A DNA stretch of 51,727 nucleotides from Bacteroidota bacterium (GTDB taxonomy: Bacteria > Bacteroidota > Rhodothermia > Rhodothermales > Rubricoccaceae). The translations under genes and the position numbers were made by a program. Below, piece by piece: positions 2,511-42,585 of this stretch (position 1 is the stretch's first letter; the number at the start of each line of letters is the position of its first letter). The notes below the pieces were generated by a model. The model was not told the origin of the DNA. It saw only the letters and a list, made by a program, of their open reading frames with translations, and made no database searches. The DNA lies in contig JBCBZH010000001.1 in NCBI GenBank assembly GCA_039815415.1, forward strand, positions 1-51,727, read 5' to 3'.

Positions 2511-4112
2511 GTGGCAACCGTCACCTCAAAGACCGCTTACGCCCGCTCCGGCGACGGCGAGCCGACCTACCCGGATGGCACGCCGCTGACGTTGGAGGAC
2601 GCCCCCCTCGTGGAGGGCAACCTGTCCTTCCACGACATCACCGAGCTGGTGTCCTACCACACCGAGAAGAAGACCCCCATTGGGTGGTACCTGGCCTTCG
2701 GGCTGGCACAGGTCGGAATGGCGTGCTTCACCGTTGCCATTGCCTACCTGGTCTGGAATGGACCGGGTGTGTGGGGGCTCAATAACCCCGTCTTCTGGGG
2801 CTGGGCCATCGTCAACTTCGTGTTCTGGGTTGGCATCGGTCACGCCGGAACGCTGATCTCGGCCGTCCTTTTCCTGTTCCGGCAGAAGTGGCGAACGTCG
2901 ATCAACCGAGCGTCGGAGGCGATGACGCTCTTCGCCGTGGCGTGTGCCCTCGTCTTCCCGACGTTCCACGTCGGCCGTGTGTGGGTGATCTACTACACGC
3001 TGCCGCTGCCGAACTCGATGGCAATGTGGCCCAACTTCAAGAGCCCGCTGCTCTGGGACGTGTTTGCGGTCTCCATCTACGGGACGGTCTCGTTGCTGTT
3101 CTGGTATGTGGGCCTCATCCCGGACCTCGCCACTCTGCGGGACCGCGCGGCCAAGACGGGCCGGACGCTCCGGGCGCGCATCATGGCCTTCTTTAGCCTC
3201 GGCTGGACGGGGTCCAACCGTCACTGGCGCCATTACGAGCGGGCCTACCTGCTGCTCGCCGGGCTGGCGACCCCGCTGGTGCTCTCGGTGCACTCGGTCG
3301 TCTCCTTCGACTTTGCCGTGTCGCTTGTGCCGGGCTGGCACACCACCATCTTCCCGCCCTACTTCGTGGCGGGCGCCATCTTCTCCGGCTTCGCCATGGT
3401 GGTGACGCTGATGGTGGTGTCTCGGAAGGTGTTCAATCTCGAGAACCTGATCACGATGGATCACCTCGAGAAGATGAACATCATCATTCTCGTGACCGGT
3501 ACCATCGTCGGCTTTGCCTACATCACGGAGTTCTTTGTGGCGTGGTACTCCGGGGTCATCTACGAGCAATACGCCTTTGCCAACCGAGCCTTCGGGGACT
3601 ACGCGTGGGCCTACTGGGCGATGATGAGCTGCAACCTCATCTTCCCGCAGGTCTTCTGGTTCAAGAAGTTCCGCCGGTCGATCCCGATCATGTTCGCCAT
3701 CTCGATCACGACCAACATCGGGATGTGGTTCGAGCGCTTCGTGATCACCGTGACCAGCCTCCACAACGACTTCCTGCCGTCGAGCTGGGACTACTACACG
3801 CCAACGATCTGGGACGCGCTTCTCTTCCTGGGCACGTTCGGGCTGTTCTTCACGCTCTTCCTGCTGTTCCTCCGCTTCGTTCCGATGGTTGCCATCGCCG
3901 AGGTGAAGGGGGTGATGCCGCAGGCCGATCCGCACTTCTACCACCACTCGGGCGATGGCCACTCGGCCGATCCTCAGCTCGAGGTGGCCGGCAGTTCTTC
4001 TTACCAGCAGGACGCCCACGTCCAGTCCACAGACAGCGAGCTGGCTGCTGACGAGGGATCTGTGGATTCGTCTGCGGATGTGGATACCTCTGACACCGAC
4101 GACCGCGCCTAA
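2511..4112 (+). CDS. actC: Alternative complex III subunit ActC (NrfD/PsrC-like polytopic quinol-interacting membrane protein)
   Basis: 533-aa highly hydrophobic ORF. GTG start 14 nt after the actB stop. Position in the act gene order. Confidence 0.85.
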
Positions 4113-21667: not shown

Positions 21668-23152
21668 TCACCCGCCGCGTTTGGCAAACCGCCCGGCCAG
21701 CGCCCGGATGGGGTCGCGCCAGGCCGGGTCGCGCATTTCGCGGATCACGAGGTAGATCCCGAGGGCGCCCACCAACACGTTGGCGACCCACATGCCCAGC
21801 CACGGCGGGAAGAAGCCCCGGTCAATCAGCTTCTCGCCGACCACCAGCGTCACCCAGTAGAACAGGAACACGCTCACCGCCAGCGTTGCCACCAGCCCGA
21901 CGCCCGCACGCTGAATGGAGAGCCCCAGAGGCACCCCGATCAGCACAAACACGAGGCACGCCAGCGCGAGCGAGTTCTTCTTGTAGATCTCCACGCGGTA
22001 GCGAGTGGACCGGCGCTCGTCCCACTCGGCTGCGCTGGCGATCTGGGCCGTCTCGCTCTGGACGGCCGCCGCACGGTCAAGAGCGAGGTCGTACACCGTT
22101 TCGCGGGCGGCATTCGAGAGGCCTTCGAGCACGATCCGGTCGGCGCCAATGAGGGCTGTGCTGGTATCTGGTGGCGGAGCGGGGATAGGCGGGCTAGCGT
22201 CGGCGATGGGTTGGGCGAGGGCAGCGAAGCTGTCGTCGTCGAGAGCAGTCGTGTCGGCCTTCGGGCGAGCACGCCAGGCCAGCGTCTCGGCGATCTCCAC
22301 CTCGCGCTGGCGTTGGGTCGCGTCCAGAGAGTCCACGAAGGCGAGCATCTGGGACGTTCGCATGGAGCGGTCGGTGCGGCTGCCGCCGTCGCGCGAGCGG
22401 CGCTCGAAGCCGCCGAGGCTGCTCAGGTCGAATGCCATCCGGTAGCGCTCGAACTGGAGGCGTTCGTAGGGCTCACCCCTGCCTCGGTTGACCTTGCGCT
22501 GGTGGACCTCGCCATCTTCGAGCAGCATGGTCAGACGCTGACCGCCGTACTGCGTCTGGATTCGTGCGCGCTCCGCGGTGAGCACGGCCTGGCCCCCGTT
22601 GGCGGAGCGCGGCTCGAAGACGGTCACGCCGACGAGCAGGCCCGACGAGTCCGGCGGGATGGTGTCGGCGCGGATGGCGTAGCCGTCGATGCCAGTGTAG
22701 AAGACGCCTGGCTCGAGGGCAAACTCCGGTCGGCTCACGCTGATGTCTCGCCAGAGACCGCCGAGGCGGAAGTTGGCCTCGGGCAGCATCTCGTTGTTGA
22801 AGTAGGCCATGCCTGAGGTCAGCGCCAGCCCGACGACCAGCACCGGCCACGCCAGCCGGGGCAGGCTGACGCCTGCACTTTTTGCGACCACGTAGGCCCG
22901 GCTCTCGCTCAGCCGCCCAAACGCCGCCAGCAGCGCGATCAGCCACGCCATCGGCACCGCGAGCGTCACCATGTAGGCGAGGCTGTATGTCAGCAGCTCG
23001 GCCACAGCGACCGGTGGCAGTCCGCGCCCAACGAGGTCCGGCAGCTTGTCGATCAGAAACTGCATCAGCAGCAGAAACAGCAGCACCGAGAACGCGGCCA
23101 CGAACGGCAGCGGCAGCGCCTTCAGGATCGAGCGGTGGAGTCGAGCGAGCAC
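21668..23152 (-). CDS. LptF/LptG (YjgP/YjgQ) family permease
   Basis: 494 aa. N-terminal TM helices are followed by a long extracytoplasmic insert and C-terminal TM helices, as is typical of this family. Confidence 0.7.
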   Translation of the reverse strand: MLARLHRSILKALPLPFVAAFSVLLFLLLMQFLIDKLPDLVGRGLPPVAVAELLTYSLAYMVTLAVPMAWLIALLAAFGRLSESRAYVVAKSAGVSLPRLAWPVLVVGLALTSGMAYFNNEMLPEANFRLGGLWRDISVSRPEFALEPGVFYTGIDGYAIRADTIPPDSSGLLVGVTVFEPRSANGGQAVLTAERARIQTQYGGQRLTMLLEDGEVHQRKVNRGRGEPYERLQFERYRMAFDLSSLGGFERRSRDGGSRTDRSMRTSQMLAFVDSLDATQRQREVEIAETLAWRARPKADTTALDDDSFAALAQPIADASPPIPAPPPDTSTALIGADRIVLEGLSNAARETVYDLALDRAAAVQSETAQIASAAEWDERRSTRYRVEIYKKNSLALACLVFVLIGVPLGLSIQRAGVGLVATLAVSVFLFYWVTLVVGEKLIDRGFFPPWLGMWVANVLVGALGIYLVIREMRDPAWRDPIRALAGRFAKRGG

Positions 23153-23210
23153 GGCCTGAAGCTATGGGCGACGAGTGAGGGGCTACGGGTTTTCTGTGTT
23201 GGTCGGGGCT

Positions 23211-23259
23211 CGCCAGCTCGAGGCGGATGGGATCGGTTTCGAGCTGGCGTTGACGTTCA
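23211..23259. repeat. Inverted pair of the 13-mer motif (CGCCAGCTCGA ... TCGAGCTGGCG), perfect 11-bp arms, 27-nt spacer
   Basis: Read directly in the divergent intergenic region between the LptF/G-like gene and the MBL hydrolase gene. Confidence 0.8.
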
Positions 23260-23357
23260 CAGGCGGGTGCAGCAGGCCGTTGGTAGCAGAAACATCAAAC
23301 GCCAAGCCGCCTTTCTTGGTCTCTACGGGGCGCCGGCCGTCGAGCGGGTGACATCTT

Positions 23358-23434
23358 GCCCACTGCCCACTGCCCACTGCCCACTGCCCACTGCCCACTG
23401 CCCACTGCCCACTGCCCACTGCCCACTGCCCACT
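23358..23434. repeat. Perfect heptanucleotide tandem repeat (GCCCACT)x11 ending 4 nt before the start codon at 23439
   Basis: Counted directly: 11 perfect units from 23358 to 23434, then GCCC-ATG. Confidence 0.95.
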
Positions 23435-23438
23435 GCCC

Positions 23439-24092
23439 ATGACTATCCAGACCTTCGTCGTCAGCCCGTTCGCCGAGAACACCTACATCCTGTCCGACAG
23501 TGGAGAGTGCGCGCTGGTGGATCCCGGCACGGCCACACGCGGAGAGCGCCAGCTCGTCGGCGGCGCCATCGAGGATGCCGAGCTTCGGGTGCGGCACCTT
23601 CTGCTCACGCACGGCCACATCGACCACGTGTTCGGGTGCGATCACTTCGCACATCGCTACGCCAACGACGCCGACTATGGCGGCTGGCAGCTCCACCCGG
23701 CGGATGGACCGTTGCTCGAGCAGGCCGTGGTGAAGGGCGAGCTGTACGGCGTCCGCGTGGATGCGCCGCCTCCGGCCACGCGCGAGCTGGCGGAAGGCGA
23801 CACGGTCGAGATCGGGAGCACCACGCTGCGCGTGCTCCACGTCCCCGGCCACTCGCCCGGCTCCGTCGCGTTCTACGACGAGGCAGGCGGGCAGCTCATC
23901 GGCGGCGACGTGCTCTTTCAGGGCTCTATTGGGCGCACCGATCTCTGGCAGGGCAGCATGGAGACGCTGCTCGCATCCATCCGCGACAAGATCCTGGTCT
24001 TGCCCAACGACACGGTGGTCCACTCTGGCCACGGTCCGAGCACGACGGTCGGGGCCGAGCGGCGATCCAACCCGTTCCTGCGCGATCTGTAG
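23439..24092 (+). CDS. Metallo-beta-lactamase fold hydrolase (glyoxalase II / YcbL-like)
   Basis: HGHIDHV motif and further His/Asp ligands ([13 protein letters not shown]); 217 aa. Confidence 0.8.
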
Positions 24093-24295: not shown

Positions 24296-25474
24296 TCAGC
24301 CGAACGCCTCAACCAAGCGCTGGCAGGCCTCCTCGAGCACGTCCATCTCCTTCGCGTAGCAGAACCGGAGGTAGGCATCTCCATCCGACGAGCTGGCGAA
24401 GAACGAAGGACCCGGCACACACGCCACGCCAGCTCGTTCGATCAGCGTCTCGGTGGCACGATGAGCGTTCTCGAAGCCCGACGTGCCGAGGCGGTCGCCG
24501 AGGTGCGTGAAGGCGTAGTAGGCACCCTCGGGCGGGTCGATGGTGAAGCCGCAGGCGCGGAGCGTATCCACCATGCGCGTCCGCTTGGCCGTGTAGTCGG
24601 CGAGCATCTGCGTGTAGTAGACGTCGGGCAGCGGGAGGGCCGCAGCCAGCCCGTGCTGCAGCGGCGCCGGGGCGCAGATATAGACGAGGTCGTTGATGAG
24701 CCCCATCTTGGCGGCCACGGGCTTGGGGGCAATCGCATAGCCCAGCCGCCAGCCCGTCATGTTGAACGTCTTCGAGAAGCCCGAGAGCGTAACCGTCCGT
24801 TCGAAGGCGCCGTCGAGCGAGGCAGGCGAGAGGTGCTCGCGCCCGTCGTAGGTCATGTACTCATAGATCTCGTCGGTGAGGACCCAGAGGTCATGCCGCT
24901 CGGCGAGGGCGTAGAGGGCTGCCAGCTCGTTGTGCGTCCAGATCTTGCCCGTCGGGTTGGCGGGCGTGCAGCAGACGACGGCCTTCGTGCGCGGCGTGAT
25001 GGCGGCCTCGAGTCGGTCCGGGTCGAAGGTCCATAGTCCATCCTCGCGGCTTAGTGGGACCGTGACCGGTCGGACGCCATACAGGTTCAAGAGCCCTGAG
25101 TGGTAGCCGTAGAACGGCTCGAACAGGACCACCTCGTCGCCCGGGTCGCACAGCGCCAGGATGGCAGCGGTGAACGCACCCGTCGATCCATTCGAGACCA
25201 CAACCGTCTCCGGGCTGGCGTCTGCGATTCGGTTGAATGTGCGAGCCTTCTCGGCGATGGCCTCGCGGAGTGGCGCGATGCCGTTGTATGCCGTGTAGAT
25301 GGAGGTGCGGTCGCTCTCAATTGCCTTGTGCGTGGCTTCCACGATAGACGGCGGCGTGGCGAGATCGCAGATGCCCTGGCCCAGGTTGACGCCGCCGACG
25401 CGGTTCACCGCAAACGTGACCGCCCGGATGTCGGACTGCTTCAGAGCGTCGGTGCGTGTAGCGAGGGGCTTCAT
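24296..25474 (-). CDS. Class I/II PLP-dependent aminotransferase
   Basis: SGFSKTFNMTGWRLGY lysine motif and an N-terminal LKQSDIRAV...NLGQG pattern. The start is set at ATG 25474, which gives 392 aa. Confidence 0.85.
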   Translation of the reverse strand: MKPLATRTDALKQSDIRAVTFAVNRVGGVNLGQGICDLATPPSIVEATHKAIESDRTSIYTAYNGIAPLREAIAEKARTFNRIADASPETVVVSNGSTGAFTAAILALCDPGDEVVLFEPFYGYHSGLLNLYGVRPVTVPLSREDGLWTFDPDRLEAAITPRTKAVVCCTPANPTGKIWTHNELAALYALAERHDLWVLTDEIYEYMTYDGREHLSPASLDGAFERTVTLSGFSKTFNMTGWRLGYAIAPKPVAAKMGLINDLVYICAPAPLQHGLAAALPLPDVYYTQMLADYTAKRTRMVDTLRACGFTIDPPEGAYYAFTHLGDRLGTSGFENAHRATETLIERAGVACVPGPSFFASSSDGDAYLRFCYAKEMDVLEEACQRLVEAFG

Positions 25475-25517
25475 GTCAAGCTGGCGAGTGGGAGAGCACC
25501 GCGTTCGTTCCTCACAG

Positions 25518-25557
25518 CCATGGCGAGGAGCCGAGCGACGTGACAATCTCGCCATGG
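25518..25557 (-). promoter_or_regulatory. Perfect 10-bp-stem hairpin in the putative 5' leader of the aminotransferase gene
   Basis: CCATGGCGAG (25518-25527) pairs with CTCGCCATGG (25548-25557), 44-83 nt upstream of ATG 25474. Function unknown. Confidence 0.4.
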
Positions 25558-41361: not shown

Positions 41362-42555
41362 ATGCTCCGCATCGTCGCTGACGCCAACATCCCCGCAGCT
41401 CGGGATGCCTTCGCCCCGTTTGGCGAGGTGCGCCTGATGCCAGGCCGCGAGATCACGCGCGCCGCTCTTCAGGCCGCTGACGTGCTGCTGGTCCGCAGCG
41501 TCACCCGTGTGGATGCCGCGCTGGTAGAGGGCACCCCGGTTCGGTTCGTTGGGACCGCGACTGCAGGCACCGATCACGTGGACGCAGAAGCGCTTCGCCA
41601 GCTCGAGATCGCGGTTGCCTCTGCGCCGGGCTCCAATGCGACCTCGGTGGTCGAATACGTGCTGGCGGCGCTGCTCGGGCTGGCGGCGGACCGAGGCGTC
41701 GGGCTGGCAGGGCGGACGCTCGGCGTGGTCGGCGTGGGGCAGGTGGGGAGCCGGTTGATCCCTCGGGCTCGGGCGCTCGGGATGGAGATCGTCGCCTCGG
41801 ATCCGCCTCTGGCTGAGGCTGGTGGCCGCCCCGGCGTGGATCTGGTCGGGCTGGCGGAGGTGCTGCACCACGCCGACATCCTGACGCTTCACACGCCCCT
41901 GTCTACCCCGGAGACCTCGGCGTACCCGACGCTCGGGAGGATCGGGGCGGAGGCGATCCACGCCCTGCGCCCCGGCGCGTGGCTGGTCAACGCCGCGCGT
42001 GGGCGCATCGTGGACGGTCCCGCGCTTGCAGAGGCTCTGGGGACTCGCCAGCTCGAGGCCGCCGTGCTGGACGTGTGGCCGACCGAGCCCTCGCCCGATC
42101 CGGAGTTGGTGGCCCAAGTCGATCTGGCGACGCCGCACATCGCGGGCTATTCGTTCGATGGCAAGGTGGCCGGGACGCGCCAGCTCGAGGCGGCCCTTCG
42201 CGCCTGGGTGGGCGACCCGCCCTCGCCGTGGGACGCCAGCCCGACGCTCGCGTCATCGGGTCCGCTCCTCGCCGAGGCGCCGCCTGCTGCTGGGGATCTC
42301 GCCGATCCGGTCCAGCAAGCCGCGTGGCTCGATGGCCTCGTGCGCCAGGCCTACGACGTGCGCGCCGACGACGCCCGGTTCCGGGCGGCGATGCACACCG
42401 AAGATCGGGCCTCGGCGTTCACGGCCCTGCGCAAGACCTACCCCGTCCGGCGCGAGTGGGCCCGCACCACCGTGCGTGGGAGCATCCCTGAGCCTCTCCG
42501 CGACGCCGTCCGAATCGGGCTGGCGTTTGGGAAGGCGGCAGACGGTAGACGGTAG
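41362..42555 (+). CDS. pdxB: Erythronate-4-phosphate dehydrogenase
   Basis: The N-terminus MLRIVADANIPAARDAFAPFGEVRLMPGREI matches the PdxB pattern. NAD-binding GVVGVGQVGSRL and a C-terminal PdxB dimerisation-type extension. Confidence 0.8.
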   Translation: MLRIVADANIPAARDAFAPFGEVRLMPGREITRAALQAADVLLVRSVTRVDAALVEGTPVRFVGTATAGTDHVDAEALRQLEIAVASAPGSNATSVVEYVLAALLGLAADRGVGLAGRTLGVVGVGQVGSRLIPRARALGMEIVASDPPLAEAGGRPGVDLVGLAEVLHHADILTLHTPLSTPETSAYPTLGRIGAEAIHALRPGAWLVNAARGRIVDGPALAEALGTRQLEAAVLDVWPTEPSPDPELVAQVDLATPHIAGYSFDGKVAGTRQLEAALRAWVGDPPSPWDASPTLASSGPLLAEAPPAAGDLADPVQQAAWLDGLVRQAYDVRADDARFRAAMHTEDRASAFTALRKTYPVRREWARTTVRGSIPEPLRDAVRIGLAFGKAADGRR

Positions 42556-42585
42556 ACGGTTTGTCAGCTGGTGTCTCACACATAA

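Follow-up and report, generated by a model that had tools for sequence, protein, structure and literature searches.

A perfect heptanucleotide array abutting the start codon of an MBL-fold hydrolase gene as an ordinary instance of a repeat habit in the Rubricoccaceae

Introduction

Heptanucleotides are the commonest class of long simple-sequence repeats (SSRs) in prokaryotes, especially in the large GC-rich genomes of non-pathogens, according to the accounts of Mrazek et al. (2007) given in PMC4679880 and PMC4692102, in which slippage related to the footprint of the polymerase is proposed for heptamer SSRs. The repeat considered here lies in a 51,727-nt stretch of DNA from a bacterium of the Rubricoccaceae (Bacteroidota; GenBank assembly GCA_039815415.1, contig JBCBZH010000001.1, positions 1 to 51,727), hereafter the window. 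It consists of GCCCACT units that run directly into the start codon of a gene encoding a hydrolase of the metallo-β-lactamase (MBL) fold. The tract is a real and ordinary instance of the known heptameric SSR class and of a habit spread over the Rubricoccaceae, not a special switch. It resembles the prokaryotic SSRs of 5-11 nt, as these are presented for Mrazek, Guo & Shah (2007), in being a perfect 7-nt array in non-coding DNA of a high-GC non-pathogen, with lineage-specific abundance and presumed slippage. Unlike long prokaryotic SSRs in general, those of the Rubricoccaceae keep to the start and stop codons of genes.

The heptamers GGGAATC of Xanthomonas and GGGGAYT of Nostoc follow a placement rule: in the 50 bp before open reading frames (ORFs) the G-rich strand is the antisense one, and at stop codons it is the sense one (Rehm et al. 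2015, PMC4692102). The window tract shares with them the period of 7 and a run of three G on one strand of each unit. The Rubricoccaceae repeats have the same antisense-upstream, sense-at-stop placement and likewise occupy common intergenic slots in related species with wide variation in length and sequence. The GGGGA(C/T)T repeats of Nostoc correspond to the cyanobacterial short tandemly repeated repetitive (STRR) sequences. One Rubricoccaceae relative carries GGGGACT itself: before rsmI of Rubrivirga sp. IMCC45206 (L086:8262-8323) the unit is TGGGGAC, a rotation of this Nostoc-enriched heptamer. Xanthomonas and Nostoc have a single genome-wide consensus with a preference for four units, whereas each Rubricoccaceae locus has its own unit, typically in 6-12 copies, and many of these units, unlike those of Xanthomonas and Nostoc, are unable to form a G-quadruplex (G4). 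In the window, the antisense strand contains at least four consecutive tracts of three or more G with short loops and the array, G-rich on the antisense strand, leaves 0 nt before the ATG; the orientation rule holds for each of the 20 family repeats. A dispersed consensus unit is lacking, as units differ at every locus.

TAACTGA heptamers stand directly before start codons that lack a ribosome-binding site (RBS) in Beggiatoaceae, cyanobacteria and some Bacteroidetes (PMC4679880). Like TAACTGA (MacGregor 2015), the Rubricoccaceae repeats are in forward orientation, lie a few nt from the start, take the place of the RBS and precede housekeeping genes; the leader of the MBL gene contains no motif like a Shine–Dalgarno (SD) sequence, and the tract overlaps the A of the ATG. 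TAACTGA is a single conserved A/T-rich unit, mostly in 2-6 copies, for which a specific regulator has been proposed, whereas the Rubricoccaceae units are diverse and C-rich (GCCCACT in the window), so that a specific regulator is implausible for them.

In Haemophilus influenzae, 7-bp repeats lie 69-106 bp upstream of hmw1A and hmw2A, within adhesin promoters (Dawid et al. 1999, as related in PMC2651432). Common to these repeats and the window tract are a 7-nt unit, more than 10 copies and a position upstream of a gene; the copy number of the hmw repeats varies between strains, in the same account. There, promoter tracts of adhesin genes modulate transcription in a host-adapted pathogen. The window tract, by contrast, belongs to a free-living marine bacterium and adjoins the ATG of an enzyme gene of housekeeping type. 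The analogy with hmw drawn in the first-pass annotation, which was made from the letters of the sequence, is thus a loose one.

The repeat tract and its gene

The tract and the gene that follows it are positioned as follows.

23357..23439, forward strand: heptanucleotide tandem repeat TGCCCAC/GCCCACT, perfect according to Tandem Repeats Finder (TRF), with a final partial unit reaching the A of the ATG
23439..24092, forward strand: gene for an MBL-fold metallo-hydrolase of 217 aa, glyoxalase-II-like (Lactamase_B PF00753, E=2e-26)

Read directly from the sequence, eleven units of GCCCACT cover 23358-23434 and are followed by GCCC (23435-23438) and ATG (23439-23441). TRF assigns to 23357-23439 a period of 7, 11.9 copies as assembled, a 100% match and a score of 166; the runner-up within the 51.7-kb window scores 59. 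The two-unit 14-mer GCCCACTGCCCACT, with up to 2 mismatches allowed, matches 12 times where 0.72 matches are expected, and none of 100 shuffles reaches 12. The tract is therefore a head-to-tail array of perfect units in the 5-11-nt range, beyond chance, and the first-pass description of a perfect SSR filling the proximal leader stands. The sense strand is 57% C and 14% G. The antisense strand reads (GGGCAGT)n, a G3N4 quadruplex-type motif with 12 G3 tracts separated by 4-nt loops.

The start of the MBL gene is well defined. ATG 23439 is the first ATG, GTG or TTG past the in-frame stop, and the N-terminus agrees with those of close homologues that begin at the equivalent residue (P0002 MTIQTF, P0003 MTLQTF, P0004 MTVQTF). 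Because translation has no earlier possible start and the homologues begin there, the tract is non-coding; it lies between the divergent starts of the MBL gene and of an lptF/G gene. Searches for known RNA families over the whole window returned none at gathering score (Rfam), and the intergenic region gave only a chance match to a miRNA (E=0.92).

A narrower enzyme name for the MBL protein was rejected, as every NCBIfam match lies far under its curated cut-off. In precomputed Pfam lists, the closest relatives of the protein (P0003-P0008, from L082-L084, L087 and L088) have a weak match to PF23023, the anti-Pycsar protein Apyc1, an MBL-fold cyclic-nucleotide phosphodiesterase.

Leader, promoter box and initiation of translation

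Bacteroidetes do without SD sequences and tune initiation through the structure of the initiation region (PMC6847099; PMC7797042). Among the called genes of relatives, 5 of 74 have an SD-like motif (GGAG, GAGG or AGGA at -20 to -4), as do 0 of the 13 window genes with starts fixed by orthology. Region -20 to -1 of the relatives' genes contains 50-52% C and 21% G; further upstream the values are 37% C and 34% G. Leaders of the 13 window genes have 47% C and 20% G. Since Rubricoccaceae, like other Bacteroidetes, lack SD sequences and have C-rich, G-poor leaders as a rule, the absence of an RBS is unremarkable, and the earlier remark that the tract leaves no room for a conventional one is moot. 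The repeat unit is an exaggerated version of a normal leader, including its ...GCCC-ATG junction. An initiation signature of ~50% C and ~20% G, often ending in ...CCCC-ATG or ...GACCC-ATG, is seen in the window, L042, L085 and L086, as a GC-rich counterpart to the A-rich Kozak-like leaders described for Flavobacterium.

No sigma-70 promoter was found in 23100-23500, as expected for Bacteroidota. The -7 element of Bacteroidetes is TAHHTTTG, with a G at -5 (PMC6847099), and a candidate of this type adjoins the repeat. Together with the leader that it would imply, it is placed as follows.

23352..23359, forward strand: putative Bacteroidota -7-like box CATCTTGC, with the A-11, T-8, T-7 geometry of TAHHTTTG
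23364..23438, forward strand: predicted 5′ untranslated region (UTR) of the MBL mRNA, ~75 nt, repeat units only, from the inferred transcription start site (TSS)

The repeat begins within the last three bases of the putative box. A box directly before the repeat slot is conserved in L087 (CCATCTTGC) and L044 (CCATCTTCG), and the order box, repeat, ATG also occurs at the MBL genes of L042 and L002, at rsmI of L086 and at L085 15936-17621. The GC-shifted form of the box, nAnCTT(G/C/T)(C/G), a pattern picked post hoc after inspection, is found at 3.56/kb in sense orientation upstream of genes, 0.97/kb in coding DNA and 0.63/kb in upstream-antisense orientation (p=1.6e-5). In genes without a repeat, the box implies leaders of ~0-35 nt. 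At the MBL gene it would place the TSS near 23364, and the window repeat would then probably form the entire ~75-nt 5′ UTR.

Such a leader would hardly fold. The minimum free energy (MFE) computed for the 82-nt leader is -3.8 kcal/mol. Extended by 30 nt, it gives -7.4; 300 random 112-mers drawn from the window average -40.1 (sd 7.3), and not one of them folds so weakly; against shuffles, the fold of the leader has z=+2.2. As modelled, the MBL leader RNA is almost free of structure.

The same slot in relatives

The closest genomic relatives of the MBL gene are metagenome-assembled genomes (MAGs) of the Rubricoccaceae and Rubrivirga isolates, with 71-89% aa identity; the window, with 64.7% GC, consequently comes from a GC-rich member of the Rhodothermales, phylum Bacteroidota. 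Close relatives were almost absent from a scan of JGI metagenomes with the MBL protein. When the DNA upstream of orthologous MBL genes is compared, a short tandem repeat is found directly 5′ of the start in most lineages, with a different unit each time; the slots of L001 and L085 contain no repeat.

L044, MBL slot: GCCCCCA, 6.6 copies (86% aa identity)
L087, MBL slot: AACTCGG, 2.7 copies (87% aa identity)
L042, MBL slot: CCCTCCGTC, 3.8 copies (89% aa identity)
L002, MBL slot: TGCGCTCC, 7.9 copies
L043, MBL slot: ACTTCCC/TTCCCAC, 3.7 copies
L003, MBL slot: a 13-mer, 2.8 copies, ATG included

Intergenic blocks of L087 match the window up to the repeat slot (alignment A1), where an unrelated repeat takes over. 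Under best rotation, 7-nt units agree at 4.19 of 7 positions for pairs from the same slot and at 4.22 of 7 for pairs from different slots. Common descent of the units within a slot was rejected on this ground, same-slot units being no more alike than others, and for the same reason the likeness between CCCACTG of the window, CCCACTT of L043 and CCCCCAG of L044 amounts to shared C-richness.

Several details of these slots deserve mention. The 10-mer GCCCACTGCC, one window unit plus 3 nt, recurs among the fetched loci only in L043 and L025. In L043, a relative with 65% identity, four copies lie in the lptF/G-MBL intergenic region (2280-2381), two per strand in an inverted arrangement, upstream of its own (ACTTCCC)n tract; they could be due to chance or represent a remnant array, a hairpin or an operator. 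In L025, GCCCACTGCC is found in one short tract of an unrelated locus. A heptamer identical by rotation (AACTCGG = GGAACTC) lies upstream of the MBL genes of L087 (333-351) and L089 (10048-10069), whose products have 87% and 63% aa identity to that of the window. This repeat stands between box and ATG in L087 and upstream of the box in L089, a more distant genus in which the tract has only 3 units. In the Rubricoccaceae MAG L003, another 13-nt tandem duplication, besides the one that spans the start codon, occurs at 3405-3445 within the region of the MBL gene coding for the conserved HVPGHSPGS; the tblastn match is split over two frames (residues 1-144 and 136-214) and the gene looks frameshifted. 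In the L082/L088 lineage the MBL gene has another neighbourhood, after a gene for ornithine carbamoyltransferase (OTCase). Gene callers often extend ORFs through stop-free tracts of this kind, with false N-terminal extensions as a result (P0012, P0041, P0117).

Repeats across the family and their orientation

The census of repeats relied on TRF and counted as near-perfect the arrays with at least 3.5 copies and at least 95% match; its sample is biased toward the MBL neighbourhood and does not represent whole genomes. In 157 kb of Rubricoccaceae DNA, 17 such arrays were found, among which period 7 dominates (12 arrays, versus three of period 8 and one each of periods 9 and 5). The identical scan, applied to 366 kb of DNA surrounding MBL homologues from other bacteria (many with 65-72% GC), found none. 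With the MBL and rsmI slots excluded, ~6 arrays are left in the Rubricoccaceae and still 0 in the control. Within this biased sample, heptanucleotide SSRs are thus over-represented lineage-wide. As arrays are also present in the cultured Rubrivirga isolates L085 and L086, one of them with a complete genome, and in many independent assemblies, they are not artefacts of MAGs. The literature search found no description of the Rubricoccaceae or Rhodothermales as a repeat-rich lineage.

The arrays keep to gene ends with a defined orientation. Twenty were tabulated, from ~10 independent slots; 16 are associated with starts and four with stops. Thirteen of the 16 overlap the start codon or lie within 3 nt of it, and all 16 have more C than G on the sense strand. 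The four that overlap or abut stop codons all have more G than C on the sense strand. A background skew after stop codons was rejected as the cause, C and G being balanced there (0.36 and 0.37). Genes that bear such repeats include those for the MBL hydrolase, rsmI, lptF/G, metF, a SpoIIE phosphatase and others. The first-pass annotation had found a repeat of this type unexpected before a housekeeping gene; given similar repeats before rsmI, lptF/G, the SpoIIE phosphatase gene and others, that surprise does not hold. In L002, a single short intergenic region contains two perfect arrays: directly at the lptF/G stop lies (CGTCGGTG) in 7.9 copies, with a G-rich sense strand, and directly at the rsmI start (TCCCTTC) in 7.7 copies, with a C-rich sense strand (1010-1063 and 1275-1337).

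The window itself holds a further array of the stop-codon type.

42536..42560, forward strand: second, minor heptamer repeat CGGTAGA (TRF consensus; rotation GACGGTA), 3.6 copies, 94% match

The array runs over the TAG stop that ends ORF 41362-42555, and its G-rich strand is the sense one, as the orientation rule has it for stop codons.

Variation in copy number

No identical MBL protein was found on other contigs, so that comparison of copy numbers was limited to sister loci. The (CGGAGTT)n tract before rsmI has 8, 8 and 10 units in contigs that are at least 98.7% identical, stem from different samples and encode an identical MBL protein. At the MBL slot of the same population, the GCGCTCCT tract has ~1-2 units, versus 7.9 in L002, another species. 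Collectively, this indicates that slippage-type change operates in the repeats of the Rubricoccaceae, and the view of the tract as a substrate for slippage is borne out at these sister loci. The further claim that copy number would alter the distance from promoter to start also fits, in the sense of leader length, inasmuch as the tract lies between the putative -7-like box and the ATG.

Origin and role of the array

The explanation that is probably right is that a housekeeping MBL gene had its short C-rich 5′ UTR taken over by a slippage-generated heptamer array typical of the lineage. A unit from this leader would have been multiplied and maintained by replication slippage, while its spread would be checked by selection at the -7-like box CATCTTGC upstream and at the ATG downstream; such fences are proposed to account for the exact abutment of the array to both. 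Once the array had replaced the whole 5′ UTR, the transcribed (GCCCACU)n leader of ~75 nt would be unable to fold and would keep the initiation region open in an SD-independent organism with 65% GC, so that the repeat may be tolerated or mildly favoured. Changes in copy number would alter the length of the leader and, at most, tune MBL expression, with no on/off switching.

Several points weigh against this explanation. An open leader needs only a G-poor sequence, not a tandem repeat, and selection for openness leaves unexplained both the preference for 7 nt and the G-rich repeats at stop codons. Variation in copy number is known from sister loci and not from the window tract. The TSS, and with it the repeat as 5′ UTR, is inferred from a box pattern defined after the fact; the gene turned up in no RNA run. 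Repeat density is low in the window, with one strong and one weak array in 51.7 kb, and the L088/L082 lineage has 0 arrays in 13.8 kb.

It is tempting to go further and propose, as a possible but doubtful extension, that the start-codon arrays of the Rubricoccaceae are no neutral debris but an evolvable device under selection. By slippage, a G-poor unit would quickly grow into a long landing pad, free of structure, that fills the space from the -7 box to the AUG, the mirror-image G-rich arrays at stops would mark or stabilize 3′ ends, and copy number would serve as a heritable, fast-mutating tuning knob for the translation of housekeeping genes; the C-rich-toward-ORF rule shared with Xanthomonas and Nostoc would then reflect a general mechanism.

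An unlikely alternative to the favoured explanation is an element of DNA structure, as proposed for the GGGAATC and GGGGAYT repeats: on opening of the duplex, the template (GGGCAGT)n would form G-quadruplexes and the sense strand i-motifs, modulating transcription of the MBL gene or of the promoter region of the divergent lptF/G. For the antisense strand, with its 12 G3 tracts and 4-nt loops, a G4-aware fold is predicted at -26 kcal/mol, against -18.5 without G4. The array follows the placement rule of Rehm et al. (2015), several family repeats have runs of 3-5 G, and the rsmI unit of L086 is that of Nostoc by rotation. About half of the family repeats, however, lack a G3 run on both strands (CAAACTC, AACTCCG, AACTCGG, GCGCTCCT, TCGCCGC, AAAGTGG), and L087, which has the most similar upstream region, carries a non-G4 unit in its MBL slot; G4 potential is therefore not a conserved requirement. 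The reading of the tract as a contingency locus, in which frequent slippage switches or strongly modulates MBL expression in the population, like that of hmw1A/hmw2A, is unproven and likewise to be judged unlikely. It can draw on the long perfect tract between putative promoter box and ATG, on the sister-locus copy numbers that differ among near-identical strains, and on the modulation of expression reported for hmw-type heptamers in the account of PMC2651432. But a tract downstream of the -7-like box leaves the spacing of promoter elements unchanged, 7-nt units outside an ORF cannot cause frameshifts, and 8 copies are kept in two strains that differ elsewhere. The genes that bear repeats (MBL, rsmI, lptF/G, metF, SpoIIE phosphatase) are of housekeeping types; the association with surface, virulence or restriction-modification genes that marks contingency loci is absent, as are genes of host interaction. 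The contingency role suggested in the first-pass annotation is not supported.

Binding of protein to the mRNA leader, by analogy with what has been speculated for TAACTGA, is improbable. One OB-fold protein, such as a cold-shock protein or S1 domains, would occupy each heptamer and exert post-transcriptional control. The tract does lie directly 5′ of a start codon without an RBS, as TAACTGA repeats do, the leaders are predicted to be single-stranded and are pyrimidine-rich, and CspB is reported to bind heptamer repeats, one protein per unit, with a weak, pyrimidine-leaning specificity (PMC4679880). Units that differ at every locus, and even in a slot shared by close relatives, nevertheless exclude a sequence-specific regulator, and the family repeats also include arrays with periods of 8, 9 and 13 nt. 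It is very improbable that metagenome assembly produced or lengthened the tract, or that the tract codes for an (AHCPLPT)n extension at the N-terminus. The window apparently comes from a marine metagenome, one run containing 99% of the sampled 31-mers, all frames are open across the tract, and gene callers carry homologous ORFs on through repeats of this sort (P0117, P0041). Yet perfect repeats of like class occur in cultured isolates (L085, L086), including a complete genome, and in many independent assemblies, and a tract of 83 bp is below common read lengths. The coding extension was rejected, since no ATG, GTG or TTG lies in frame upstream of 23439 and the homologues start at the MBL Met.

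The Rubricoccaceae appear to be rich in repeats, a trait not described for this lineage before; in them, heptamer arrays probably replace entire 5′ UTRs, and the slot persists among close relatives while its units turn over completely. The match of the orientation rule with that of Xanthomonas and Nostoc suggests a general constraint on bacterial heptamer repeats. Cultured Rubrivirga isolates carry such arrays, and the effect of leader repeats on SD-independent translation is therefore directly testable. In practical terms, N-termini proposed by gene callers are unreliable at stop-free repeat tracts.

Neighbouring genes

On the other side of the intergenic region, 286 nt from the MBL start, a divergent gene begins with a box of its own.

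21668..23152, reverse strand: divergent LptF/LptG-family permease gene, 494 aa, GTG start at 23152 (PF03739; start confirmed by orthology)
23157..23164, reverse strand: TAGCTTCA box, 4 nt before the start of lptF/G, likely a -7-type element

The lptF/G box is kept as TAGCTT(C/T/G)N, 4-5 nt before the start, in L001, L003, L042, L044, L072 and L087, and its AAGCTA columns are invariant in alignment A1. A box of the same type stands before metF (window start 13715). If the TAGCTT box is a -7-type element, it implies that the lptF/G and metF mRNAs would be leaderless or nearly so.

Downstream of the MBL gene, the aminotransferase ORF 24296-25555 (reverse strand) most likely starts at ATG 25474 and not at 25555, as judged by orthology with L042; a AGCTTGAC box lies directly 5′ of ATG 25474. 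Within the lptF/G-MBL region, a terminator-like hairpin at 23302-23319 (reverse strand), CCAAG-AAAGGCGG-CTTGG, is followed by a run with 5 T in its first 8 bases, and it falls inside an intergenic block common to the window and L087 (CAAACGSCAARCCGCCTTT).

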